A DNA stretch of 64,000 nt, taken from IMG/VR virus record IMGVR_UViG_3300010400_000006, positions 3,493 to 67,492 of that record; one strand, given 5' to 3'. Origin of the DNA: a virus. Under the pieces are notes generated by a model. The model was not told the DNA's origin. It ran no database searches and saw only the letters and a program-made list of their open reading frames with translations. Made by a program: the position numbers and the translations under genes. This document shows positions 208 to 62,488 of this stretch, piece after piece. The number at the start of each line of letters is the position of its first letter. The first letter of the stretch is position 1.

Positions 208-822
208 CTAGGCCTCGCTCCAGTCCGGCCGCTGGGATTCCAGCGACTTCCAGTCGTCGAACATCTCGGCACGCAGGTAGATGTCGTCGTCGTAGTCCCA
301 CGGCACCTTCTGGATCATCTTGACGTCGTAGCCGAGGAACCCCTTCGTGTCGTAGATGGCCTCGATGAACCGCTTCTTGTTCCGGACGCCGAGGTTGGTG
401 TGATCCGTGGTCACGAATCGGTGATACGGCAGGTAGCCGAACGCGAGTTCGTGTTCGCGGATCTCCCCCATGACGTCGTCGACGTACACCGACATGTGCG
501 AGATGAACGGAGCCGACGGCCGATCGTTCCCCGCCAGGGAGTGCCGCGAGGTACCCATGTGGTACGTCAGGAACTCGAGCTCCATCGGCTGGACCGTGTA
601 GTTGAACCACATCTCGGCCTGGACCGAGCTCTGGTACACGATGCCGGTCAGCGGGTTGGTGATGTAGCCGCGCAGCGTGGCTTGGTCCCCGATCCAATCG
701 AGGTGACCTCGGCTGCGCCAGTATCCCATGGCCTTCTGTGGGTCCTTGGTGTACATGGCGACCTGGTGGAACTGGTAGTCGAAGAACGATTCCCTCTCGT
801 TCGTCGGAATCGGAGCGGGCAC
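208..822 (-). CDS. VOC/glyoxalase-fold-like protein
   Basis: FHQVAMY...MELEFL...ISHMSVYVDD pattern resembles the VOC beta-alpha-beta repeats with H/E/H ligands; coupled to the SDR gene. Confidence 0.55.
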   Translation of the reverse strand: MPAPIPTNERESFFDYQFHQVAMYTKDPQKAMGYWRSRGHLDWIGDQATLRGYITNPLTGIVYQSSVQAEMWFNYTVQPMELEFLTYHMGTSRHSLAGNDRPSAPFISHMSVYVDDVMGEIREHELAFGYLPYHRFVTTDHTNLGVRNKKRFIEAIYDTKGFLGYDVKMIQKVPWDYDDDIYLRAEMFDDWKSLESQRPDWSEA

Positions 823-1541
823 TACTTGCCTCCTGAGATGTTGACGATGGATCCGGTCTGGTATGCCGGACCGGTGAGGACGTCGCGAACCACCTGCGAC
901 ACCTCGGCCTTGGTCACCCGCCTACCGAGCGGGAGCTGGGTGCGCTCGTACGCGGCGGCTTCCTCTCGCGTCCAACCGCGCACCGCGCCGATCTGGGCGT
1001 CGATCGAGTTCGACATGTTCGTGTGCGCGACCACGGCCGGGGCGACCCCGTTGATCCGCCAGCCGGTCCACTCCCGAGCCATAACCCGAATGGCCATCTC
1101 CTGGGCCGCCTTGCTGGAGCAGTACGCCACCGAGGTGCGCATGGGGTTGCGAGCCGCGTCGGACGTCAGCGCCACGGCGGAGAACACCTTCTCCGGCCAG
1201 AGCGTCTTGATTCGGCTGAGCAGCATAACCATGCCGCTGACGTTGACCTCGAAGTGCTCGCGCATGTGGTCGAAGGTCATGTCGTTCAGCCAACGGAGCT
1301 TGTTGACGCCCGCCGCGTACACGACGTAGTCGAACCCCTCGAAGTCGGCACGCGGGTTGTCCATGAGTCCGGCCTTAAGCAGCCAGCCTTCCAGCCCAGT
1401 CGGGTTGAGGACGTTCAGATCTTCGATCGGCGGCCGGTACCACATGACTTCCTGCAGCCGCCGGTCGACGTTGGCATCGCTCCAGACCTGCGCGCCGATC
1501 GATCCGACGCTGGCTCCGATGATCAGCCCCGCGCCCTTCAC
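822..1541 (-). CDS. SDR-family NAD(P)-dependent oxidoreductase
   Basis: GASVGSIG, YAAGV, NVSG, S...YCSSK, INGVAP motifs; GTG start overlaps the upstream TGA. Confidence 0.9.
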   Translation of the reverse strand: MKGAGLIIGASVGSIGAQVWSDANVDRRLQEVMWYRPPIEDLNVLNPTGLEGWLLKAGLMDNPRADFEGFDYVVYAAGVNKLRWLNDMTFDHMREHFEVNVSGMVMLLSRIKTLWPEKVFSAVALTSDAARNPMRTSVAYCSSKAAQEMAIRVMAREWTGWRINGVAPAVVAHTNMSNSIDAQIGAVRGWTREEAAAYERTQLPLGRRVTKAEVSQVVRDVLTGPAYQTGSIVNISGGK

Positions 1542-1837
1542 GGCTGCATGTCCGCGTGGCGCTTGGCGTCGTAGCCAGGGTCCTTGGAGTCGTCCTTGGC
1601 TCGCTCCTGCTCGGCTTCCCACTTGGCGCGGTCCCGCTGCATCTTGCGGGCCTTCTCCATGAGAAACTTCGAGGCGGCCCAGTAGGGCTTGATCACGTCG
1701 AGGTAGGACTTCGAGACGACCGGCCAGAGCAGCTCGGTGACGCTCTTGATCTTGTCAACGAACTCGTTGCCGAGGTCCTTCGCGTCCTTGATGATCGCTT
1801 CCTGGTCGATCTTCCACTGCGGATTTTCTTCGGTCAC
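1538..1837 (-). CDS. hypothetical protein
   Basis: 99 aa, 4-nt overlaps with both neighbours. Confidence 0.75.
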   Translation of the reverse strand: MTEENPQWKIDQEAIIKDAKDLGNEFVDKIKSVTELLWPVVSKSYLDVIKPYWAASKFLMEKARKMQRDRAKWEAEQERAKDDSKDPGYDAKRHADMQP

Positions 1838-2526
1838 TTGTCATCTCCCTTGATGACCTGGAAGAGCAACGTCTCGTTGCCCTCCTTGATGGCGAACTTG
1901 GAGGCCCATCCGAGCTTGATGTTGTTGGAAGGATGGTCCTTGGCGTAGTACGGGTTCTGCAGCAGGGACCGGAAGCTGTCCAGGACGAACGGCTTCTTGT
2001 GGTCGAGGTCCTGCGCGTACAGCGGCGAACGACCGTCCGGCACGAACACCGTGAACGGCGCACCCGGCGCGAGCACACGGCACACCTCCCAGATCAGCGG
2101 GCGCGGGTCCCACAGATGCTCCAGCAGGTTGATCGCGAACACCCCACCGACCGTGCCATCCTGGTACGGCAGGTGACCCCAGGTTCCGAGAATCGGCGTG
2201 CGCCGGTAGATCCGCTGTCCGAGCCGGTTCTCGCCCTGGTGCACGTGCTCGGACACCGGCTCGAAGTCGTACTTCGGCCAGTCGATGCGGACCGCTCCGG
2301 GGATCAGCTTGCGGCCTGGACCGAGGTCGAGCACCGGCTTCGAAAAGTCGGCCTGCACCCAATCGGGTAGCTCCCGGTCAAGCCCGAAGGCCATCAGACC
2401 GAGCGGGCTGTCCTCCTCGGGCAGCCACAGCGAGCGGAAGTACTCGACTTCGTCGCCGTTGTTCTCCACGAAGATCGCCGGCCGACTGCCCCGGTAGGAG
2501 CTGTCCTCGAAGTTGCCCTCACACAC
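1834..2526 (-). CDS. class I SAM-dependent methyltransferase
   Basis: VLDLGPG, LPYQDGTV, LLEHLWDP, RVLAPGA motifs. Confidence 0.85.
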   Translation of the reverse strand: MCEGNFEDSSYRGSRPAIFVENNGDEVEYFRSLWLPEEDSPLGLMAFGLDRELPDWVQADFSKPVLDLGPGRKLIPGAVRIDWPKYDFEPVSEHVHQGENRLGQRIYRRTPILGTWGHLPYQDGTVGGVFAINLLEHLWDPRPLIWEVCRVLAPGAPFTVFVPDGRSPLYAQDLDHKKPFVLDSFRSLLQNPYYAKDHPSNNIKLGWASKFAIKEGNETLLFQVIKGDDK

Positions 2527-3007
2527 CGGGCATCCCTGCCTTTCCGCCGAAGTTCTGCTGCTCCATGAGCTTGAGCGTCAGGAACAGATGTCCGATCAGG
2601 TCCAGAACCACCTCGCGGGGTGGCTCGCCAACGAGCGGATGGCCCTCCCACATGGCTCGCCGCAGCTTGATCATCTTCCGGCTGAGCTCGGCGTACTGGC
2701 CGGGCACACCCAGGTCGTCGGCGCGGTCGCCGTAATCCCGTTGTTTGTCCATGAACAACCAGGTCCACTCCTGGAGTAGGCCGGGGTCGTTCGTGCCGCC
2801 GATGAAGATGCGTTCAGCGGTCTTGGTCAACTCCTCGACCTGTGTGCCGAGGTTGATCGTGATCCGGACGTTGTTCGCGGCGTCGCGGTCGAAGTACGTC
2901 GGCCTCTGTGCCTGCTTCTCTGCCGCTGCGACGATTTCCTGCTCGAAATTGGTCGCGTCGTCGTCGAGGAAGCGCGGCTTACGGGAACTTCTTCCCTCGT
3001 TCGGCAT
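2519..3007 (-). CDS. nucleotide-modification-associated (Nmad1/DUF1599-like) protein
   Basis: FMDKQRDYG...LGVPGQYAELSRKMIKL...E..REVVLDLIGH pattern. Confidence 0.65.
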   Translation of the reverse strand: MPNEGRSSRKPRFLDDDATNFEQEIVAAAEKQAQRPTYFDRDAANNVRITINLGTQVEELTKTAERIFIGGTNDPGLLQEWTWLFMDKQRDYGDRADDLGVPGQYAELSRKMIKLRRAMWEGHPLVGEPPREVVLDLIGHLFLTLKLMEQQNFGGKAGMPGV

Positions 3008-3626
3008 GCCATTTCTCCAACAGTCCATAGAAGATGGTCTCTGCTTGCTGCAGAGTCTGTACCCGGTGAATGTGATCGAACGGTCGGTGCAGACCCACAT
3101 TGTATGGCTGATTCATCATGAGTGCCGACAACCCGAGCCCCTCAGCCTGCTCGATCATTCTCGGCAGGTCATCGAGCACGCCAACGATGCGTTCTCCGCC
3201 GTAGAGCCGGACCAGATCAATGTACTTGCGCTCGCCCCAAATCAGGTTGTCGTGCTGTACCCGGTTGCGCAACAGCCAGTGCCGGGTGTCCGGGTCGACC
3301 GGACCCAGTTGCAAGTACGGCCGAGAGGTGCAAATCACCACCTCGGCTCCCCATGATCGGAGAGTCCTGGATAGGTCGTCTGCCCCAGAATAGGCGGGAA
3401 GCGACCGCTTCAGGCCACCTTGCCGATACGCCAGCTTGATCTTGCGGTAGGTGGTCTTGCTGACACCCATGAACTTGTGCAGCGGGACGCCGGGGTTGAT
3501 CTTGGTTGGCGGCGGCATTTCTCTTCCCAGCCAGCCCGCCGCGAACCTGAGGAAGTGCCCGTGATAGTCGGCCAGACTGCCGTCAATGTCCAGGCCGATG
3601 ACCGGGCCTTCCCCATTCATCCTCAT
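2979..3626 (-). CDS. HAD-family phosphatase / 5'-nucleotidase-like
   Basis: LDIDG motif I, CTSR motif II, K motif III, LDDLP motif IV. Confidence 0.85.
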   Translation of the reverse strand: MRMNGEGPVIGLDIDGSLADYHGHFLRFAAGWLGREMPPPTKINPGVPLHKFMGVSKTTYRKIKLAYRQGGLKRSLPAYSGADDLSRTLRSWGAEVVICTSRPYLQLGPVDPDTRHWLLRNRVQHDNLIWGERKYIDLVRLYGGERIVGVLDDLPRMIEQAEGLGLSALMMNQPYNVGLHRPFDHIHRVQTLQQAETIFYGLLEKWHAERGKKFP

Positions 3627-4411
3627 GCCATGAGCTCCTTCAGGACCTCGTTGAAGGCCTCGTGGCTCAGCACGCCCTTCTGCCACTTGCCGTAGCGGCC
3701 GACGTGGAACACCTGCGGCCAGCAGTTGCAGTTGGTGCCGATGGGCTTCACGATCTTCGAGATGCCCTCGATCGGCGGCTTCTTGCCGCGCAGGTTCGGG
3801 TACTCCAGGGAGTTGTACCCGTAGATCCTGGAAGCCCGGTACCAGGCCGTGTCCGGATCGCCGTTGTAGACGACCGTGTTGTTGTTCGGCAGCGAGTACG
3901 GCGTGAAGATGCCGCGTTCCGGCGCGTCGCCGATGCCCCAGACCTCACGCGAATCGAACTTGTGCTCCGGCATACCGCACAGCAGGTAGCGCGGCATGGT
4001 GTTGATCACCAGGTCCGAGCTGGCCACCAACATGGCGATCCCGCTCTGGTCAGAGCGTTGGAACTCGGTGCTCTTGACTTGGTAGCCGTAGACGTCCCAG
4101 AGCCAGCTGTACGCCGCACGGATGTCCCAGGCCGGATGCGCTTCGACGTACCTCTCTGCCGACACCGGTCCAGCGTATTCCGGGCCGTACACCTTGCGGC
4201 GGTAGGCCCCCGTGTCGCCGACGTGGGCGTAGTGCACCGTTACCGGATCCGCCAGCGGGATGCCCGGAATGCTCTCGTGCAGATACATCGCACCGAACAT
4301 CTCGGACTTGCGCTTCTTGGAGAAGATGGCAACATCCGCTCCAGCAAACCGGTCTGCCGCGTACGCGGCCAGTAACCCGGTTGGTCCGCAACCAAGCACC
4401 GCTACCCTCAC
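3623..4411 (-). CDS. FAD-dependent oxidoreductase
   Basis: N-terminal VAVLGCGPTG Rossmann motif; C-terminal VGRYGKW. Confidence 0.85.
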   Translation of the reverse strand: MRVAVLGCGPTGLLAAYAADRFAGADVAIFSKKRKSEMFGAMYLHESIPGIPLADPVTVHYAHVGDTGAYRRKVYGPEYAGPVSAERYVEAHPAWDIRAAYSWLWDVYGYQVKSTEFQRSDQSGIAMLVASSDLVINTMPRYLLCGMPEHKFDSREVWGIGDAPERGIFTPYSLPNNNTVVYNGDPDTAWYRASRIYGYNSLEYPNLRGKKPPIEGISKIVKPIGTNCNCWPQVFHVGRYGKWQKGVLSHEAFNEVLKELMA

Positions 4412-9458: not shown

Positions 9459-9944
9459 CTAGAAGGGGGCTTCGACGCCGACCTTGACCTTGGCGGCGGT
9501 CTTCGCGGCGGGCTTGGCCTTCGCGGTCTTCGGGGCGTCGTCCGCACCCTCAGCCGCGTCCGCCTTGGCCTTCGCCGCTTCGGCCTTCTCGGCCTTGGCC
9601 TTGGCCGCCTCCTGGAGCTTCGCCTCGCGCTCGGCCTCCTTCTCGGCCTTGGCCTTGGACCTGGCCTCCTTGGCCTCCGCCTCGCGCGCCTCCTTGGCGT
9701 CGGCTTCAGCCGCCTTCTGGTCGCGCCGCTCCGGCGACCGCTGGAACGAGGCGTAGCAGACCACCGCGAGCTGGATGGACTTGATGAACGCGGTCCACTT
9801 CTCGCTGGGCTCTTCGCCCTCGGCGGGCGCGTCGGCGTCGACCGGGTAGCCGGTCTTCTCCTTCAGCCAGACGCCGTAGTTCTCGTGCAGGCTGGTGGGG
9901 TCCTTCTCGACCAGGGAAGCGTTGACCTTCTCGTCGACCGACAT
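9459..9944 (-). CDS. hypothetical protein with Ala/Lys-rich tail; paralogue of 21014..21733
   Basis: strong RBS AAGGAG; shared PTxLHExYxxWxxEKTG...QxAVxxYxxFQxSPE. Confidence 0.85.
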   Translation of the reverse strand: MSVDEKVNASLVEKDPTSLHENYGVWLKEKTGYPVDADAPAEGEEPSEKWTAFIKSIQLAVVCYASFQRSPERRDQKAAEADAKEAREAEAKEARSKAKAEKEAEREAKLQEAAKAKAEKAEAAKAKADAAEGADDAPKTAKAKPAAKTAAKVKVGVEAPF

Positions 9945-21013: not shown

Positions 21014-21733
21014 TCAGGCGTCGACCTTCTTGGCGGGCACCTTGGCGGTCTTCGGGGCGCGGCGGGCCGGAACCCTGCTCGGCTTCGACTGCGCGGCCTT
21101 CTCCGAGGCGAAGTCGGTGTTCATCGCGTCCAGCTCCGGGCTGGACTCCTGGACCTTGGGGTTCGGGGCCGGGTTGGCCTCCAGCTCTGCGACGAGAGCC
21201 TCGTCGTCCTCGACGGTGTCGTTGGTGCCGATGACCGGCTCCGGGTCGTCACCGAGTTCGACGAGAGCGCGCTCGTTGACGAACGACTCCGGGTCGGCCG
21301 GAGTCTCGACGACCGCGCCAGCCTCGACGACCGGGTTGCCGGGCAGCTCGACCGCCGAGGCGACGTGCTTCCGGAGCGCAACGAGCGCGGGGTTCTGCCC
21401 CTCCAGACCGGAGGTGTCGATGCCGGCGGCCTTCAGAGCCTCCAGGGCGTCCGCGATCTTCTTCGCCTCACGCTCGGCCTTAGTGGTGCCAGGCTTCTTG
21501 CCGACCTTGGCGGCCAACTTGGCGGCGTCGGCCTCGGCCCGGAGGCGGTCGCGCTCGGCGATCCACTCGGGGGACTTCTGGAAGTCGCCGTACAGGTTGA
21601 CGGCGATCTGCACAGCCTTCAGGTCCGGCTCGAAGCCGGTCTTCTCGGCGATCCAGCCCGCGTAGAACTCGTGCAGGGGCGTGGGCGCCTTGGTGACGTA
21701 GGCGGTGTAGTTCTTGGCGGTGGACTCGGCCAT
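21014..21733 (-). CDS. hypothetical protein; paralogue of 9459..9944
   Basis: RBS GAGGAG; shared N-terminal domain; basic C-terminus. Confidence 0.85.
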   Translation of the reverse strand: MAESTAKNYTAYVTKAPTPLHEFYAGWIAEKTGFEPDLKAVQIAVNLYGDFQKSPEWIAERDRLRAEADAAKLAAKVGKKPGTTKAEREAKKIADALEALKAAGIDTSGLEGQNPALVALRKHVASAVELPGNPVVEAGAVVETPADPESFVNERALVELGDDPEPVIGTNDTVEDDEALVAELEANPAPNPKVQESSPELDAMNTDFASEKAAQSKPSRVPARRAPKTAKVPAKKVDA

Positions 21734-21866
21734 TTCGACTCCTCGGTTGACACGACTGGCATTGATGGTACTCCAGTCGAGGTGGTTGCACGAGCGGGCG
21801 CTCGGAAAGCGCGCAGTAGGTCGGCTACTGCACGCCATCCCAGCGTCCGGCGCTGGTCCTAGCAGA

Positions 21867-22052
21867 TCAGAGCTGGCCCCCGTTGAACGCCCATTCCAGC
21901 TTGTCCAGCTCGGTGTCGTACTCGCCGTAGTCGACGTCAGAGTCGTCGACCGGCAGCGAGGGGTCGAACACGGTCACGAGCGGGTCAACGGACGCGCCGA
22001 GGGACTCGGACACGATTGCGCCGAAGATTTCACCGAGCTTCAGAAAGTCCAC
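21867..22052 (-). CDS. acidic hypothetical protein
   Basis: RBS GGGAG, GTG start, 61 aa. Confidence 0.6.
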   Translation of the reverse strand: MDFLKLGEIFGAIVSESLGASVDPLVTVFDPSLPVDDSDVDYGEYDTELDKLEWAFNGGQL

Positions 22053-22220
22053 AGAATGCTCCCTAGTACGCGGGCGTATCTGCCGCAGGCAGATGGCCCT
22101 TACCGAAGGTAAGTCCAAGTTCGAGAGTGCGCCCCTAGTCGCGGGAGTGCGCGCGTTAGTACGCGAAGGCGAGCGCGTAGGCTCCGAGGGTACCCCGAAG
22201 GGTACCCTACGCAGGTCAGA

Positions 22221-22496
22221 CTAGTCCCAGCACTGGTTACAGCGACCCGCCAGGGGCAGAGCAATGCCGCAACCGGGGCAGGGCTTACCGTGCCGCGCAG
22301 GGCGGACTGCGGCCTTCTTACGGAATACCGGCGGGTCACCCGGCAGAGCAGAGTTCACCCCGTAGTAACCGGAATTACGGGCCCGGAAGTCAGTTGCGAT
22401 AGGGGTAGCCGAGGTACCGACTACGTAGCGGTTACCCTTAGTCAGACTGCCGCCCCGAGGGACAGTAACCCGCACCTTACGCTGCGCCTCAAACAT
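22221..22496 (-). CDS. small basic protein with C-terminal Zn ribbon
   Basis: CPGC...CNQC; first ORF after the control region. Confidence 0.6.
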   Translation of the reverse strand: MFEAQRKVRVTVPRGGSLTKGNRYVVGTSATPIATDFRARNSGYYGVNSALPGDPPVFRKKAAVRPARHGKPCPGCGIALPLAGRCNQCWD

Positions 22497-22581
22497 TATA
22501 CTTCACCCTTAGCAAGTAGAGCTACCCCCTAGCCGACCTAGCGGGCCCTAACCCCCGGAGTACCGGGGCCTTACCGTTACT

Positions 22582-22610
22582 ACCCTACCCTAGCGGGCCG
22601 GTAAAGTAAA
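22582..22610 (-). promoter_or_regulatory. putative early promoter
   Basis: TTTACT-17 nt-TAGGGT on minus strand; more GTAGGGTA copies near 22672 and 22736. Confidence 0.5.
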
Positions 22611-22939
22611 GCCGGCCAGTTTTACGGTACAGCTAGTAGGCTTACCGGGCCGGGTACGCGCCTTACGCCTTTACCCTACCCCGGTAATACCGACCGCGCC
22701 CCGTTAGGGGCCGCCGGACTAACCCGGTAAAACAGTACCCTACCCTACTTAGCGGCGGGGCGCTACCCCCTACCTAGCGGGGCCGGGGGCCGCGCCCCCT
22801 TTTTGGTATAGCACTAACCTACCCGCCGGGCGGGCCCCCGTATACCGCCGAATGGGTTAACTCGTATCCACGCGCGTAGTACGGAACCGCGTCAGCGGGC
22901 GCGCGGTTCCTCTCCCCCGCGTCGCTCGTAGGCGCTACG

Positions 22940-22992
22940 CGCGGTTCCTAACCGCGACCCGCGACGTACGCGGTTCCTAACCGCGACCCGCG
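22940..22992. repeat. 24-bp direct repeat x2, each with a CGCGGTT-N3-AACCGCG palindrome
   Basis: CGCGGTTCCTAACCGCGACCCGCG at 22940-22963 and 22969-22992. Confidence 0.9.
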
Positions 22993-23572
22993 CGGGCCTA
23001 CGCCTACGCCCCGATTGGAAAGTACGGAACCGCGCCCGGTTAGAAGAACGCGCAACGCGCGCAGCGCTGGCGCCCGAGAGAGTGGATCGCGCGCTGTGCC
23101 TATTCTTCGCGCGCGGGACCCGGCGCGGTACCTTCCTTGTCGGGCGCGCGAGGCGCTAAGCTCCCCCGCCGTGGGCGCGTACGCGAGCGGATCCGCGCGA
23201 AAGACGCGCCCGCGCGCCGATTCGTGCGGGCGCGCGGTAGGCGCTCGGTCGCACATTCGCGCGATTCAGCCAAGACGCGCGCACACCCGAGCTCGATCCT
23301 TAGACAACGAGCGCGTAGAGAAGGAACCGCGACGCGCGGGTTTTCGTTCGCGTATGCGGCTAAATAGCGCGCACGACGCGTTACCCCCACCCCACCCCTA
23401 AAGCCCCTCCCCTCCCCCTTTTACGGGCGCGGAGTAGGTACCTGGCGCGCGGTTAAGCCGCGTGCGCGTACGCGGAAACATAGGAACGCGCGCAATAGTT
23501 AACCCGCGCGACTCGCGATACGCGCGCCCGGAACGCGTACAGATCAGCGAAGCTGATCCATCCCGAACGCGA

Positions 23573-23623
23573 ATCAGCCCTGCTGGAGGGGCGGAGGATC
23601 CCCTTGATTCCAGCAGGGCTGAT
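23573..23623 (-). terminator. 15-bp stem hairpin ending the late/lysis operon
   Basis: ATCAGCCCTGCTGGA / TCCAGCAGGGCTGAT downstream of the last lysis gene; weak U tract. Confidence 0.5.
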
Positions 23624-23686
23624 CAGTTCGATGCGACGCGTGGCCTAGCTTCCCAAGCTCATCGTACCCTAAGCGCGGCCTGCGCG

Positions 23687-24028
23687 CTAGTACGAACCTG
23701 GCGGAGACAGATTCGGATTCGTTCCGCCTTCACCGACGATCGGGAGCACCGCGTTTCCCGCCACCTGCGGGCGCTGGACGTGCGTGGCCTTCCAGCCGGC
23801 CCACCAGGTCAACGCGCCGACGATGCCGGCCAGCAGGATATCGGTCAGGATCTGTCCCAGCCAGTCCTGCAAGAACGGCATGATGCCGGCCATCACGGGC
23901 ACGGTCTTGAGCAGGAAGGCCGCCACCAGCGAGACCAGGAAGGCCGCGATTCGCGCAGCCGCCACCTTCGGCTCGATCGGGTACTCGCCGTCCACATTGG
24001 GCTCTTGTACCTGCGCCTGATCGTTCAT
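23687..24028 (-). CDS. holin-like membrane protein
   Basis: IEPKVAAA, two TM segments, GWKATH..RP end. Confidence 0.65.
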   Translation of the reverse strand: MNDQAQVQEPNVDGEYPIEPKVAAARIAAFLVSLVAAFLLKTVPVMAGIMPFLQDWLGQILTDILLAGIVGALTWWAGWKATHVQRPQVAGNAVLPIVGEGGTNPNLSPPGSY

Positions 24029-24084
24029 GATTCTAACCTGCCTTCTCGAGATCCAATCGGACACAGGGGTAGTTTAGCGTATGC

Positions 24085-25530
24085 CTAGTACAGCCCGATG
24101 AAGTTCGTCTGGCCAGAATCAGAGCCAGTGCTCACAGGATTGATCGAGGCCCAGGAAGTGATGCCGGTCGCATAGAAGCAGCGCCGATTGGCTACTCCCA
24201 CGCCTCCATTCATTGGGCCCGCGGAAGTGGACATTCCGGAGAACGTCGGAGCCCCACCCAAGTTCGACACGAATGCTACCCAGACAAAACGCGGGTCTGT
24301 TTGCGACGCGACCGGCGCGGAAAGTGCCTTCGGACGCCATCCTGTGGAAGTGAACAAGGCGTTGTCGGTCGGAGTTGAACCAACCAGCGTTCCGTCGTCC
24401 TCGAACACCGAGTAGCCCTGGATGCCACCGCCAGGGGTGTTGCCTGCAATGGTGGCGTACATGACTGCGCCAACAATGGGTTTCCCGCCAGGGACCCGGA
24501 CACGCTGCCACACCGCCACGCCTGCACCAGGGGCACCTGCACCCGTGGCGCTTTCTGGGTCCATGCTCGCTGCGATCAGGCCGTACCCGGAGAGCGGATA
24601 GTTCGCCTCTGATGCAGCCCCTCCGCCACCAGCGGGCGTGGACCACACCAGGCTACCACCGGAAACGCCCAGGAACGTGCCATCAGCACCCTTGGTGAGC
24701 TTCGTTGCAGCGTCATTTGCGGTGCCAGCAATCAGATCACCGGCTGCGTCGAAGATGGTGAACGGGATCTTGGCCGATGCGTTTTCCAGCGCAGTAACGC
24801 GACCATCGATCGCAGTGACCGAAGCGGCGCTGGCTTTTCCGCCGAGGGCCGTCATGATCGTCGTCGAGAAGTTCACATCATCATCGATAGCCTGGGCTAG
24901 TTCGTCCAAAGTGTCCAGAGCCGCCGGGGCAGCTCCAACCCAGGCTGCGATGCCGGCCGTAACGCGCGCGTCTGCTGCAGCAGCGAAGTCGGTGATCTGA
25001 GAAGCCGTGTGCGTGTGGACTGTCGCAGCCTTGCCTGCCAAGCCCGGAACTGTCGGGGCACTGGCAGTGCCGCCGAGGTCTCCTGCAAGTTGGAGCTTGC
25101 CCTTGAGGACCGCTGTGGCGTCTGGCGTGGATCCGCCCGAGCCCGCTACCTCGACGTCGCCGGTCACCGGGTCCGGTGCGATGCCATTCACGGTTCGAAC
25201 CGTGGTGAACACCTCAGGCACTGGTTCGACCGCTGCGATGTCCTCGTAGTTGATGTTGCTTGGCGCTCCGAGCGGCAGCGCGAAGTTCCAAGGGTTCTCG
25301 GGCTGGTTGTCGATCAGCTCGGTGACGTGATAAGTGCCAACCGGCAGCCTGACCAAGGTGATCTCGCCGACGCCCTCCACGATGCTGACGGAAACTTGGC
25401 GCGGCGAGAGCACCGTGGTGCCGATTGTTTGCCGGGGCGGCTGGAAAAGAATCCGGCCCGAGGAGTTCGTGCCCTGGGCTCTGGTGAAGTCGATGGAAAT
25501 GACGGTGGTTGCAGCAGAGCCCAGAGGCAC
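24085..25530 (-). CDS. tail fibre / virion structural protein
   Basis: KGKLQLAGDLGGTA, HTHTASQITDF and APAALDTLDELA..IDDD fibre motifs. Confidence 0.75.
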   Translation of the reverse strand: MPLGSAATTVISIDFTRAQGTNSSGRILFQPPRQTIGTTVLSPRQVSVSIVEGVGEITLVRLPVGTYHVTELIDNQPENPWNFALPLGAPSNINYEDIAAVEPVPEVFTTVRTVNGIAPDPVTGDVEVAGSGGSTPDATAVLKGKLQLAGDLGGTASAPTVPGLAGKAATVHTHTASQITDFAAAADARVTAGIAAWVGAAPAALDTLDELAQAIDDDVNFSTTIMTALGGKASAASVTAIDGRVTALENASAKIPFTIFDAAGDLIAGTANDAATKLTKGADGTFLGVSGGSLVWSTPAGGGGAASEANYPLSGYGLIAASMDPESATGAGAPGAGVAVWQRVRVPGGKPIVGAVMYATIAGNTPGGGIQGYSVFEDDGTLVGSTPTDNALFTSTGWRPKALSAPVASQTDPRFVWVAFVSNLGGAPTFSGMSTSAGPMNGGVGVANRRCFYATGITSWASINPVSTGSDSGQTNFIGLY

Positions 25531-54046: not shown

Positions 54047-54250
54047 GATCGCCCTTTCCAGAATGCCAACGAGTTCCATTATACGCCACGAAATAGTTAG
54101 CTTGGCTAACGGGGCTCAAGGGGTCGCTTTGTCGCAGATTTCGCTGGCGCGGCGGCGCGCGCTCGTACGAGGGGCGAATAGCGTATGCATATGCATAATG
54201 ACCCTTCCTAAAACAACTAGATCGCTCGCCTATAGCGGAATATCTTCCAA

Positions 54251-54499
54251 AGAAGAGACCCTTCCGACCCCTTGAGGTCCGTTTCCCCTGGTCAAGTAGG
54301 GGTCCTCACCCAAAAACAAAACGACCTCAAGGGGTTACTTCTAAGACCCCTAGGGTACTGCTCGACCTATTCTTAAAAAGAAGCGACCCTTCCGACCCCC
54401 AAAACTTTCCGGAAAGTTGCTGTTTCTATTCCCCGTGCGAAGCGACCCTAACGACCCCTGGTGAAACTATTCCTAAATAGAAGCGACCCTAGCGACCCC
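54251..54499. repeat. iteron-like repeats (putative replication origin)
   Basis: GAAG(C/A)GACCCT-N2-CGACCCC in 21-mers starting 54251, 54379, 54438, 54479; AT-rich; next to the primase-helicase. Confidence 0.8.
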
Positions 54500-54584
54500 T
54501 TGCGGTAACTCCAGGGGTCGTTTCTAGCCCTTCCGGGGGTCTTTACTTACCGTCAATGAGGCCCCCGTTTTCGGCTACCCTGAG

Positions 54585-60871: not shown

Positions 60872-61244
60872 CGTTCTCCTCTGCTGCATAGTAGACGTGC
60901 GTCCAGCGGTGCTCACGCTTGCCCCAGGTGGTGAGGCGGGTGTACCGCATCCACCAGCGCCCACAGGGCTTGCAATCCCAGAGCCCGTGGAACTTCTCGC
61001 CCTCCGCCAGGAACCTGTTGACCAGATCCATGTCGGGCTCGATGATCTCTACGAGATCATCTCGACCCATGTTGAGGTGGCAGGACCGCTTCAGCGACGG
61101 CTTGTCGACGTCGTCTCGGCTCGGGCAGTGCGGGAACTTGGGCTTGACCGGTCGGTTGATCTTGTGGTAGTTGTTGGTCGGCTTCGCGCGCTCCGGACCA
61201 GCCTGCCGGGTTGCAGCCGAGAAGTTGGTCCGCACGCCGCTCAC
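60852..61244 (-). CDS. hypothetical protein (CxxC)
   Basis: GTGA overlap with the ThyX stop. Confidence 0.65.
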   Translation of the reverse strand: MSGVRTNFSAATRQAGPERAKPTNNYHKINRPVKPKFPHCPSRDDVDKPSLKRSCHLNMGRDDLVEIIEPDMDLVNRFLAEGEKFHGLWDCKPCGRWWMRYTRLTTWGKREHRWTHVYYAAEENDDRTQR

Positions 61245-62488
61245 CGCGCTGCCCCCGGATCGGCCAGCCATTCACGGGCCTGGATGGCGCCGATGAAGAC
61301 CGGCTTTCCGTTCGGAGTTGTGACCACCGACTGTGCACCAACACCGGCCACGATCGGGTTGCCCTCGACCACGTCATACTCCTCGATCCACTCGGCGGAA
61401 GACCGGCCGATCTTGGCGTTGGCATCGACTCGGTTCCGAATGCTGCAGGCCCGGTCGAAGTCCGCCTTCATCACGCAGGAACCGACCTGGTAGCACACCG
61501 GCCGCAGCAGGTCCGCCAGCGCATCGAACTGCCAGGCCGAAGACCTGTCCTCGGTCCAACTGCCGCCGGTTCCGTCCTTCGTCCGAACCTCGTAGGTCTT
61601 CTTCTGGCCGTAGGCCCGAATCGCCTCGGCCATCTTGGCCAGCACCAACCGCCATTCGAACTGCGCCTGCGTGCAGAGCCGGTTGCCAGCATGGTCGAGC
61701 AGACCGCGGAAGTTCGTGACGTAGTTCAGCCGCGTTGCGATGTTCGTGGGGAGCAAACCCCGCGCGTCCTCGGCCGGCATGCCGTCGTCAACCAGGTGCT
61801 TGTAGGTCCGCTCGAGAACATTCAGAGCTGCGTCCCACTTCTGGCGCCACTTGTCCTTCTTGTCGATCCGACCCATGGCGTCCTGCAGCGCCCGGTACTT
61901 CGGGTCGTTGTCATCCGTGGTCCATTCGATCAGTCCGGTGGAGTCCCGGTACGCCACCCTCCAGGCTTCCTGGGCCTCTTCGACAGCGTGCGGGTCGCTC
62001 CCCGCCAGGGACGGTGGAAGTACCACCCGGTCCGCGAACGAGTCCTCGACGACGGCGAACCGCATCGACTCCTGGGCGTACGCCGCTGTGCGCTGCCGAA
62101 CCATCTGGTGCGTGAAGCCGCGCGTCACACCCTCCAGCATGAAGTGCATCTGGACAGCCTCCAGCGGCATCTTCAGCTTGGTGTTCTGCATCTGCTCCAG
62201 GTAGTGGTGCCGCTCCGCGTCGGTGATGTCCGCGAGGTCTCGAACCACCTCGCCGAGGTACATCTTGGCGCAGGCTGCGATGCTCCCCAACGGATCACTC
62301 GGGGCCGAGAGGAGGGTCGCGGTCGGGCCGGACTGCGTCGTGAGCGTCTCCGAAGCGAACATCGCTTGGTCGGCCCACTTCTGTACCGCCGTAGTTGGGC
62401 CAGGCGTCGTCGGGGTCGCGCGGGGTGGCGATGTCTCCGGTGTGATGGAATCCGACGGGCGGCTGTGCGCTGATTCCTGGTCCATCAT
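61241..62488 (-). CDS. thyX: ThyX-like flavin-dependent thymidylate synthase
   Basis: EGVTRGFTHQMVRQR...QESMRF, EDARGLLP, RLCTQAQFEWR; start uncertain. Confidence 0.85.
   Translation of the reverse strand: MMDQESAHSRPSDSITPETSPPRATPTTPGPTTAVQKWADQAMFASETLTTQSGPTATLLSAPSDPLGSIAACAKMYLGEVVRDLADITDAERHHYLEQMQNTKLKMPLEAVQMHFMLEGVTRGFTHQMVRQRTAAYAQESMRFAVVEDSFADRVVLPPSLAGSDPHAVEEAQEAWRVAYRDSTGLIEWTTDDNDPKYRALQDAMGRIDKKDKWRQKWDAALNVLERTYKHLVDDGMPAEDARGLLPTNIATRLNYVTNFRGLLDHAGNRLCTQAQFEWRLVLAKMAEAIRAYGQKKTYEVRTKDGTGGSWTEDRSSAWQFDALADLLRPVCYQVGSCVMKADFDRACSIRNRVDANAKIGRSSAEWIEEYDVVEGNPIVAGVGAQSVVTTPNGKPVFIGAIQAREWLADPGAAR

Follow-up and report, generated by a model that had tools for sequence, protein, structure and literature searches.

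A tract of 300 bp, in which T on the plus strand never precedes C or G, was identified in a 64,000-nucleotide stretch of viral DNA (hereafter the window; positions 3,493 to 67,492 of the IMG/VR record IMGVR_UViG_3300010400_000006). On the minus strand, on which nearly all credible open reading frames (ORFs) of this genome are located, the same property reads as a complete absence of A preceded by C or G. These two kinds of dinucleotide steps are further referred to as T-C/G and C/G-A, and the minus strand as the gene (sense) strand. The observation is real and lies far beyond chance. With a probability of about one half, the tract is the core of a control region serving the replication-gene (presumed early) operon, comprising promoter-like modules and the leader of the first gene, with a composition held by selection for initiation and expression. 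According to this reading, four tandem modules on the gene strand, with boxes TAGGTT or TAGGGT(A), of which two have the doubled form TAGGGTAGGGT, would drive the replication-gene operon, and a small, conserved zinc-ribbon gene would have the tract as its untranslated leader. The lack of T-C/G would then be the extreme of a rule governing the control regions of this lineage, which confines A and T almost entirely to T-then-A islands in a G+C background. Such a rule would purge CA/TG, TC/GA and AT and enrich TA and CG, and we would attribute it to transcription initiation and early expression (dense TpA-led -10-like elements on G+C-clamped DNA) and not to the avoidance of DNA modification. The complete, strand-specific ban itself is real and is not really explained by this reading.

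An earlier note on this DNA, made by a model from the letters alone, had estimated that the tract holds about 51 T, each before A or T, that about 10 of its roughly 56 A follow C or G, and that TA is scarce elsewhere in the genome. Exact counting bore out all three estimates. The plus strand at 22505-22803 (299 nt) consists of 51 T, 56 A, 112 C and 80 G; none of the 51 T precedes C or G (TA 35, TT 15, TC 0, TG 0), and nine of the 56 A come after C or G (CA 4, GA 5), with a single AT. The observed/expected ratio of TA is 0.53 genome-wide vs 3.66 in the tract; TC (1.21) and TG (1.08) are not depleted genome-wide. The T[CG]-free gap of the tract measures 301 bp (22503-22804), whereas the runner-up has 53 bp, whether the window or all 67,492 bp of the genome are considered, and in 200 first-order Markov simulations of the genome the longest such gap had a mean of 50.4 and a maximum of 79. 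Taken separately, the TC-free gap extends over 359 bp (22503-22862) and the TG-free gap over 321 bp (22483-22804). If T preceded C or G at the genome rate (0.71), the probability that none of 51 T does so would be 3e-28; the rate of the other uncovered stretches of at least 80 nt (0.69; 1011 of 1457 T, pooled) gives 6e-27, and the base composition of the tract itself 2e-23. The ban exceeds mere TA enrichment, because all 15 T of the tract that are not followed by A precede another T and never C or G (p = 7e-11). The whole stretch is present in a single 67,399-bp contig of one metagenome run (X1) with 0 letter differences, and thus the tract is no local assembly patchwork. X1 may be the source of the record; another run (X2) contains identical fragments of the genome, none of which spans the tract, and no RNA run is listed as containing the sequence.

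The ban is also biased towards one strand, since the tract contains 0 C/G-A vs 9 T-C/G on the sense strand (binomial p = 0.004). The pattern differs from a strand-symmetric ban on CA/TG: the plus strand lacks TC and TG, while its CA and GA are merely depleted. Sense C/G-A steps are likewise absent over the 45 nt upstream of a single exception at 22805, across the most upstream promoter-like module (P0, see below), and at the opposite end the first sense-strand GA occurs at 22504-22503, 8 nt ahead of the ATG of the small ORF. All A and T of the tract are confined to T-then-A islands (on the gene strand TA x19, TAA x7, T x9, TTA x2 and TTTA x2, plus others), none of which opens with an A after C or G. 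Indices of the kind used for repeat-induced point mutation (RIP) are TA/AT = 35/1 and (CA+TG)/(AC+GT) = 4/39, with a CG count of 29. A milder form of this composition extends over the neighbouring DNA: in 22804-23560 the observed/expected ratios are 0.40 for TG, 0.42 for CA, 1.65 for CG and 2.12 for TA, and for the entire 1.2-kb non-coding region to which the tract belongs they are 0.37 (TG), 0.40 (CA), 1.43 (CG) and 2.4 (TA). In other gaps bearing promoters or iterons, the fraction of T followed by C or G is 0.35-0.44, vs 0.69 in the pooled uncovered stretches mentioned above.

The viral record is complete, its ends overlapping by 123 bp, and a soil-metagenome run contains the whole genome. 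The capsid protein is 59-61% identical to Gordonia phage capsids, and the matching phage records (n=162) are mostly those of Mycobacterium (72), Gordonia (46) and Microbacterium (38) phages. In gene direction, the late part encodes the small terminase, large terminase, portal, capsid, tape measure and tail fibre, followed by a small membrane protein (24028-23687), which is the last gene of the late operon. Then come a hairpin and the 1.2-kb non-coding region, of which the tract forms the gene-proximal quarter. A 91-aa ORF is next, and further downstream there is a run of about 22 kb encoding a helicase, an exonuclease, an AAA_24 protein, two methyltransferases, an SDR and an NT5C-like protein, beyond which a DnaE-type polymerase, ThyX, a primase and an iteron array are located.

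The earlier note had also pointed to repeated TAGGGT-type boxes in the tract, and these are indeed concentrated there: TACCCTA has nine copies in the genome, five of them inside the tract, and TACCCTAC has seven, of which four are inside. On the gene strand, six of the nine copies of TAGGGTA lie in 22150-22860, and the others (9983, 23665 and 50912) are in intergenic gaps. The boxes form four promoter-like modules, named P0, PA, PC and PB in gene direction (Table 1). P0 lies within a 20-nt segment that is 80% identical to PA (direct repeat D12). The doubled box TAGGGTAGGGT occurs three times in this genome and five times in that of a relative, G001 (described below); each of the eight copies is oriented with the genes and lies in a non-coding gap ahead of a gene start, and a reversed control pattern is found in neither record. 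Downstream of the solitary internal doubled boxes (w9989, and 7454 and 13927 in G001), a start codon follows after about 35-55 nt (hand count). The base following the doubled box is A in six of the eight cases and T in two.

Table 1 Features at the junction of the late and the presumed early genes (window coordinates)
Feature	Position	Strand	Remarks
15-bp perfect inverted repeat	23573..23623	-	follows the last late gene; presumed structural-operon terminator
CG-rich half of the 1.2-kb non-coding region	22860..23540	.	carries GGAACCGCG repeats
P0: -10-like TAGGTT	22816..22821	-	just upstream of the tract; putative promoter
Terminator-like hairpin GGGGGCCGCGCCCCC + T5	22785..22804	+	6-bp G/C stem, 3-nt loop; upstream tract edge
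T-C/G-free tract	22504..22803		plus-strand T-C/G absent = minus (gene) strand C/G-A absent
PA: doubled box TAGGGTAGGGTA	22736..22747	-	proximal -10-like TAGGGT at 22742-22737; conserved GGGGGTAGC ahead
PC: single box TAGGGTA	22672..22678	-	CGGTATTACCGGGG ahead
PB: -35-like TTTACT (22610-22605), 17-nt spacer, doubled box (22581-22592)	22581..22610	-	proximal TAGGGT at 22587-22582, then AGTAAC
91-aa basic protein with C-terminal CPGC...CxxC zinc ribbon	22221..22496	-	first gene after the tract
GGGTACCC-UUCG-GGGTACCC hairpin	22188..22207	-	directly after the small ORF; another TAGGGTA before the hairpin

In Streptomyces coelicolor the -10 motif TANNNT is found at 80.4% of transcription starts (PMC4895711), and for SigA of Mycobacterium smegmatis TANNNT is given as the preferred -10 element (PMC6448022), stronger than VANNNT. 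TAGGGT and TAGGTT fit this actinobacterial pattern, which, by inference, supports the view that the boxes behave like -10 elements. A literature search for TAGGGT promoters in phages yielded nothing relevant. The idea of the earlier note that the tract is an early promoter region with TAGGGT -10 boxes thus gains support from the location at the operon head, the gene-strand orientation of all eight doubled boxes and the conservation in G001. The statistics, the location and the strand bias and conservation of the motif are shown directly; that the modules are promoters, that they act early and why the compositional rule exists is inferred. A scan with a 16-nt motif returned eight further loci (34-49% G+C) with unrelated surroundings, and these were taken as chance hits.

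The tail protein led to four viral records (G001-G004), and the comparison of the region rests on one relative, G001 (67,161 bp), the sole record of the four that shares it; a search with the alignment of the membrane protein (A3) again found G001 only. The two phages share 51% identity in the tail protein and 71% in the membrane protein. At the junction in G001, the same membrane gene is followed by a TAGGGTA, a hairpin that differs in sequence, a block rich in CG and in G, a TA-rich non-coding kilobase and the first gene; the small ORF is missing. The alignment of the regions (A2) contains two conserved blocks, GGGGGTAGC...GTAGGGTAGGGTAC and CTTTACTT...TAGGGTAGGGTAGTAAC.G.AAGGCC, with the 17-nt spacer of the second diverging. 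The PA block is conserved with G001 (L008 316-327), P0 aligns with GTAAGGTT of that phage, and PC resembles its module GGGTAACCGGGGTAGGGTAGGGTA (L008 510-532). The match of PB (G001 L008 473) includes identical TTTACT, 17-nt spacing, TAGGGT, TAGGGTAGGGTAGTAAC and AGTAAC, with different letters in the spacer, and a promoter would be expected to show just this combination of conserved elements and a diverged spacer.

Composition is shared as well. On the gene strand, the 290-nt core of G001 and the tract of this phage hold 22 vs 35 TA (background about 5.6 per 300 nt), 1 vs 1 AT and 8 vs 9 T-C/G, respectively. TA richness, AT poverty and low gene-strand T-C/G are therefore common to both phages although they differ at half of their tail-protein residues, which argues for a function. 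The complete absence of gene-strand C/G-A is not shared (24 in G001 vs 0). In G002-G004 no doubled box was found, nor was any TA-rich tract in the compared parts. The Gordonia phage Lambo (about 61% capsid identity) has nothing comparable where its late and early genes meet; the 114-bp T-C/G-free gap of that phage corresponds to a Pro-Ala repeat with almost no T.

The rule continues into the first gene, and this is the evidence that it is held by selection. The small ORF is real, since three homologues, encoded on contigs of 47 kb, 40 kb and 2.3 kb, align with it at 58-72% identity, and 42 columns of the alignment, among them CPGCG...C..C, are invariant. A perfect TATAAT (22500-22495, gene strand; TATACT on the opposite strand) encloses the ATG of this ORF, and AAGGG is found 10 nt upstream of the start. 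Within the ORF, 11 of the 17 codons that start with A come after a codon ending with T; in 50 other genes this is the case for 183 of 3557 (5.1%), with 0.15 as the top value of a single gene. The bias also stands out inside the gene, where T-ending codons precede 11/17 A-starting codons vs 15/74 other codons (Fisher's exact p = 0.0006). In its 276 nt there are 14 sense C/G-A vs about 41 expected from the genome frequency, and 33 sense T-C/G vs about 34.5 expected. Since the protein is conserved and it is the choice of the preceding synonymous base that changes, mutation alone is insufficient, and the codon-junction bias points to selection on the sequence itself. The plus-strand fraction of T followed by C or G rises from 0 in the tract to 0.2-0.5 across approximately 22100-22500, and the rule fades past the UUCG hairpin behind the ORF.

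The nature of the small protein was approached in several ways. No matches were obtained in a Pfam, PHROG and PDB profile search, and an Atlas search returned just unnamed actinobacterial clusters with a low recognition score. The AlphaFold model was too poor to be used (mean predicted local distance difference test score, pLDDT, of 49). Neither tblastn with the small ORF nor megablast/blastn with the tract gave any match in the phage collection, and among viral, metagenome and genome contigs no relative was found with the small ORF, its alignment (A1) or the neighbouring 274-aa protein. Between the small ORF and the next gene (22052-22220, minus strand) there are three hairpins, two of them UUCG-looped (GGGTACCC-UUCG-GGGTACCC and CUUACC-UUCG-GGUAAG); the gene after them more likely starts with GTG at 22051 (AGGGAG upstream) than with the listed TTG at 22118.

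Several points weigh against a promoter and leader core as the full explanation. The modules are putative promoters, and when 12 sites were aligned their -35 positions proved heterogeneous (TTTACT in two, 17 nt away, TAGCNN/TAGACC in four, TTGTGG in one, nothing recognisable in the rest). A scan of 22000-24200 with the promoter consensus of Escherichia coli gave 0 sites. At an estimated 45 nt each, the four modules span at most roughly half of the 300 nt, and neither the lack of T-C/G from the spacers nor the near-zero AT follows from promoter function alone, just as an argument from DNA flexibility or melting does not predict the strand asymmetry of the ban. Moreover, G001 bears equivalent modules yet has 24 sense C/G-A in 290 nt, and hence the modules do not require the ban. 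A model of promoters and expression does not really explain why the ban is complete. Two other ideas were abandoned: DNA wrapping, given that the TA steps show no 10-11-bp periodicity, and restriction-site avoidance, which does not fit the ordinary density of CTAG and GTAC and the lack of any 6-bp TA-centred palindrome in the tract.

In the earlier note the tract was interpreted as a footprint of DNA modification, tied to an enzyme cluster at 208-4411 and directed either at T before C or G or, in the manner of Mom of phage Mu, at A after C or G. The contexts named there are in print: in Pbunaviruses F8 and 14-1 about a quarter of T is reported to be hypermodified, in a TG motif (PMC12191111), post-replicative phage T-dioxygenases prefer NTC or NTG (PMC13229309), and Mom modifies A in SAS/SASNY of double-stranded DNA (PMC13219725); the main text of 'Pathways of thymidine hypermodification' (PMC8989533) gives no next-base context. 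A phage or host system that marks or attacks T before C or G, with the template strand of the first transcription unit kept clean for the unmodified host RNA polymerase, would agree with several of the findings. The ban is strand-specific, concerns the template strand, weakens across the small ORF (14 template-strand T-C/G in 276 nt) and the hairpin region, and reaches synonymous sites (11/17); the T ending the -10 box precedes A or T in all eight doubled boxes; and the phage possesses a divergent ThyX and the enzyme cluster of unknown role. The ThyX-family protein (61241-62488, minus strand) has 415 aa (Thy1, E = 4e-31) vs a domain of 191 positions, and is reported to have a changed signature motif.

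Such a system is nevertheless unsupported by the gene content and weakened by the relative, and we consider it unlikely, although it is the main rival of the promoter and leader reading. The cluster encodes an SDR, an S-adenosylmethionine-dependent methyltransferase, an NT5C/HAD-like protein and unknowns, and PDB searches with three of its proteins gave no match. Tet/JBP (PF12851) and ParB (PF02195) have 0 matches in the genome, and none of about 60 scanned ORFs, many of them without any family, has a PHROG or Pfam match annotated as dUMP hydroxymethylase, 5-hydroxymethyl-2'-deoxyuridine (5-hmdU) DNA kinase, glycosyltransferase or GNAT, so that no named hypermodification gene was found to link the cluster with the tract. 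The proposal that cluster and tract should vary together failed in G001, which has homologues of 3/3 tested cluster genes (48-51% identity) and yet 24 template-strand T-C/G in the homologous 290 nt, several of them inside promoter spacers. In this phage, the doubled-box promoter w9989 has C/G-A steps in its surroundings and leader, TC and TG are undepleted genome-wide, and the 22 kb downstream, with their ordinary T-C/G density, must also be transcribed. Against the Mom-type variant stand the nine C/G-A steps that remain on the plus strand, eight of which are C/G-A-C/G (by eye), and the lack of a GNAT protein in the scanned ORFs. A more elaborate version, in which virion T before C or G is marked or attacked by the host, the template strand of the first transcription unit is clean for that reason and the zinc-ribbon protein lets the marked genome be read, appears more doubtful still. 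If it were true, there would be an undescribed class of next-base-specific DNA marks whose footprints can be read straight from sequence.

The same strand asymmetry (C/G-A 0 vs T-C/G 9) would be expected if the rule acted on RNA, with the first early transcript (leader, small ORF and UUCG hairpin) avoiding GA and CA. It would thereby escape an endoribonuclease or RNA-binding factor reading A after G or C, or avoid Shine-Dalgarno-like GGAG/AGGA and ACA sites in a long leader. The ban runs from a few nucleotides past the predicted P0 start to the ribosome-binding site, persists at the synonymous sites of the small ORF and fades past the hairpin behind it. We know of no RNase with G/C-A specificity, however, and the G001 leader has 24 such steps in 290 nt. 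The 45 nt over the P0 promoter, on which an RNA rule makes no demand, are also free of sense C/G-A, the folding energy is no better than that of shuffled sequences on either strand (z = -0.58 and -0.10), and in the Rfam covariance search of the tract even the best hit (E-value 0.34) fell far short of the gathering threshold. In mycobacteria, the main cleavage motif has C at +1 (PMC6448022). Taken together, this makes an RNA-level rule rather improbable. An antisense transcript of about 290 nt, read from the plus strand between the TATACT -10-like box (22499-22504) and the hairpin at 22785-22804, would account for the coincidence of both ends of the T-C/G-free gap with these two signals and for the lack of NTG start codons on the plus strand of the tract (TG = 0). 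The hairpin with T5 has the features of an intrinsic terminator, as predicted from its sequence, and is a rare signal (TTTTT has 7 copies in the 67-kb genome); seen from the gene strand, an A5 tract precedes the hairpin. Against such an RNA, which we regard as very improbable, stand the doubled boxes, 8/8 on the other strand, the T-run, which is not conserved in G001, the absence of an Rfam match or of excess plus-strand folding energy (z = -0.10), and the codon-junction bias of the small ORF, which falls outside it. Equally hard to accept is a mutational footprint, i.e. context-dependent deamination or repair bias (RIP-like CA-to-TA and TC-to-TT) in a region that is often single-stranded and heavily transcribed. 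The RIP-like indices of the tract and the TG and CA depletion with TA excess of the 1.2-kb region look like one, but no single chemistry removes both CA and GA (whose conversion to TA needs a transversion) and leaves 29 CG, the changes in the ORF concern the preceding synonymous base with the protein conserved across four homologues, which indicates selection, and no deaminase gene was found among the scanned ORFs.

Some further observations concern the surroundings of the tract and the remaining control elements. The CG-rich half of the non-coding region carries GCGCGGTTCCT and CGCGGTTCCTAACCGCGACCCGCG repeats (four and two copies, respectively, in 22860-23540), and a CG-rich block occupies the matching place in G001. 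Upstream of the promoter array, the gene strand contains six or more G4-5 tracts (GGGGGAGGGGAGGGG...GGGGTGGGGTGGGGG, 23383-23418), a candidate G-quadruplex element; the position of this run is conserved in G001 (L004 18689-18730), whose contig ends there in a poly-G run. Around the boxes of either phage, no four G-tracts with short loops were seen when the sequences were read by eye, no tool being used. The gene at 9459-9944 has its own doubled TAGGGTAGGGT box 45 nt upstream, and a doubled box of G001 (13927) is situated at a similar operon distance. This gene and the one at 21014-21838 (both on the minus strand) match phrog_34140 and phrog_20596 (function unknown), and they are probable paralogues. 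The DnaE-type DNA polymerase III alpha (PHP, pol3_alpha, finger and HHH domains; genome 2-3184, minus strand, L003) is encoded by an ORF that is open at the record end. Directly downstream of the primase (54080-54584, minus strand) there are four iterons GGGGTCG..AGGGTC.CTTC with T/A-rich AATAG-type segments, about 60 nt apart, with 33 TA in 505 nt and an ordinary number of AT (18). This array is probably the replication origin, and because of it the tract was rejected as a candidate for that role.

That two dinucleotides are banned completely from one strand over 300 bp (chance <1e-20), with an effect continuing into synonymous codons, is a strong sign of selection by something that reads two letters of DNA or RNA at once, and nothing known in the genome explains it. 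Should this reader be a DNA mark or a defence nuclease, clean early cassettes could serve to predict, from the sequence by itself, the modification contexts and the earliest-expressed genes of uncultured phages. If promoter design is all that lies behind the ban, the analysis would still provide an unstudied, actinophage-like lineage of soil viruses with an operon map and a defined promoter type (TAGGGTAGGGT).

An architectural parallel is offered by phage T7, in which the tandem strong early promoters A1, A2 and A3 head the early operon. In both cases several host-type promoters of the same strand are packed into the 300 bp or so that immediately precede the first early gene; those considered here are putative, and their boxes are of TAGGGT type in the actinobacterial TANNNT style. 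To our knowledge, no dinucleotide ban has been described in the early region of T7. Promoters of the SigA/HrdB type (PMC4895711, PMC6448022) resemble the modules in the TANNNT fit and in T-first as the stronger form, would resemble them in a weakly conserved -35 element, and differ in that the doubled TAGGGTAGGGT, exclusive to this phage pair, is not described in the accessible parts of these two papers. In Pbunaviruses F8 and 14-1, and with T-dioxygenases, T is marked according to its next base, in the kind of context missing from the tract; no homologous enzyme was found here, and TC and TG are both absent, on one strand only. The accessible texts of PMC12191111 and PMC13229309 report no unmodified promoter islands. 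With Mom of phage Mu, which produces N6-carbamoylmethyl-adenine, the likeness is that A after C or G is the gene-strand view of the ban, and the difference is that Mom acts on both strands of the duplex, whereas nine plus-strand C/G-A remain here and no GNAT is present among the scanned ORFs. RIP in fungi, finally, is a eukaryotic, repeat-triggered mutational process. The tract resembles its products in the high TA/AT and low (CA+TG)/(AC+GT), and departs from them in that TC/GA is purged too and that the evidence from synonymous sites indicates selection.

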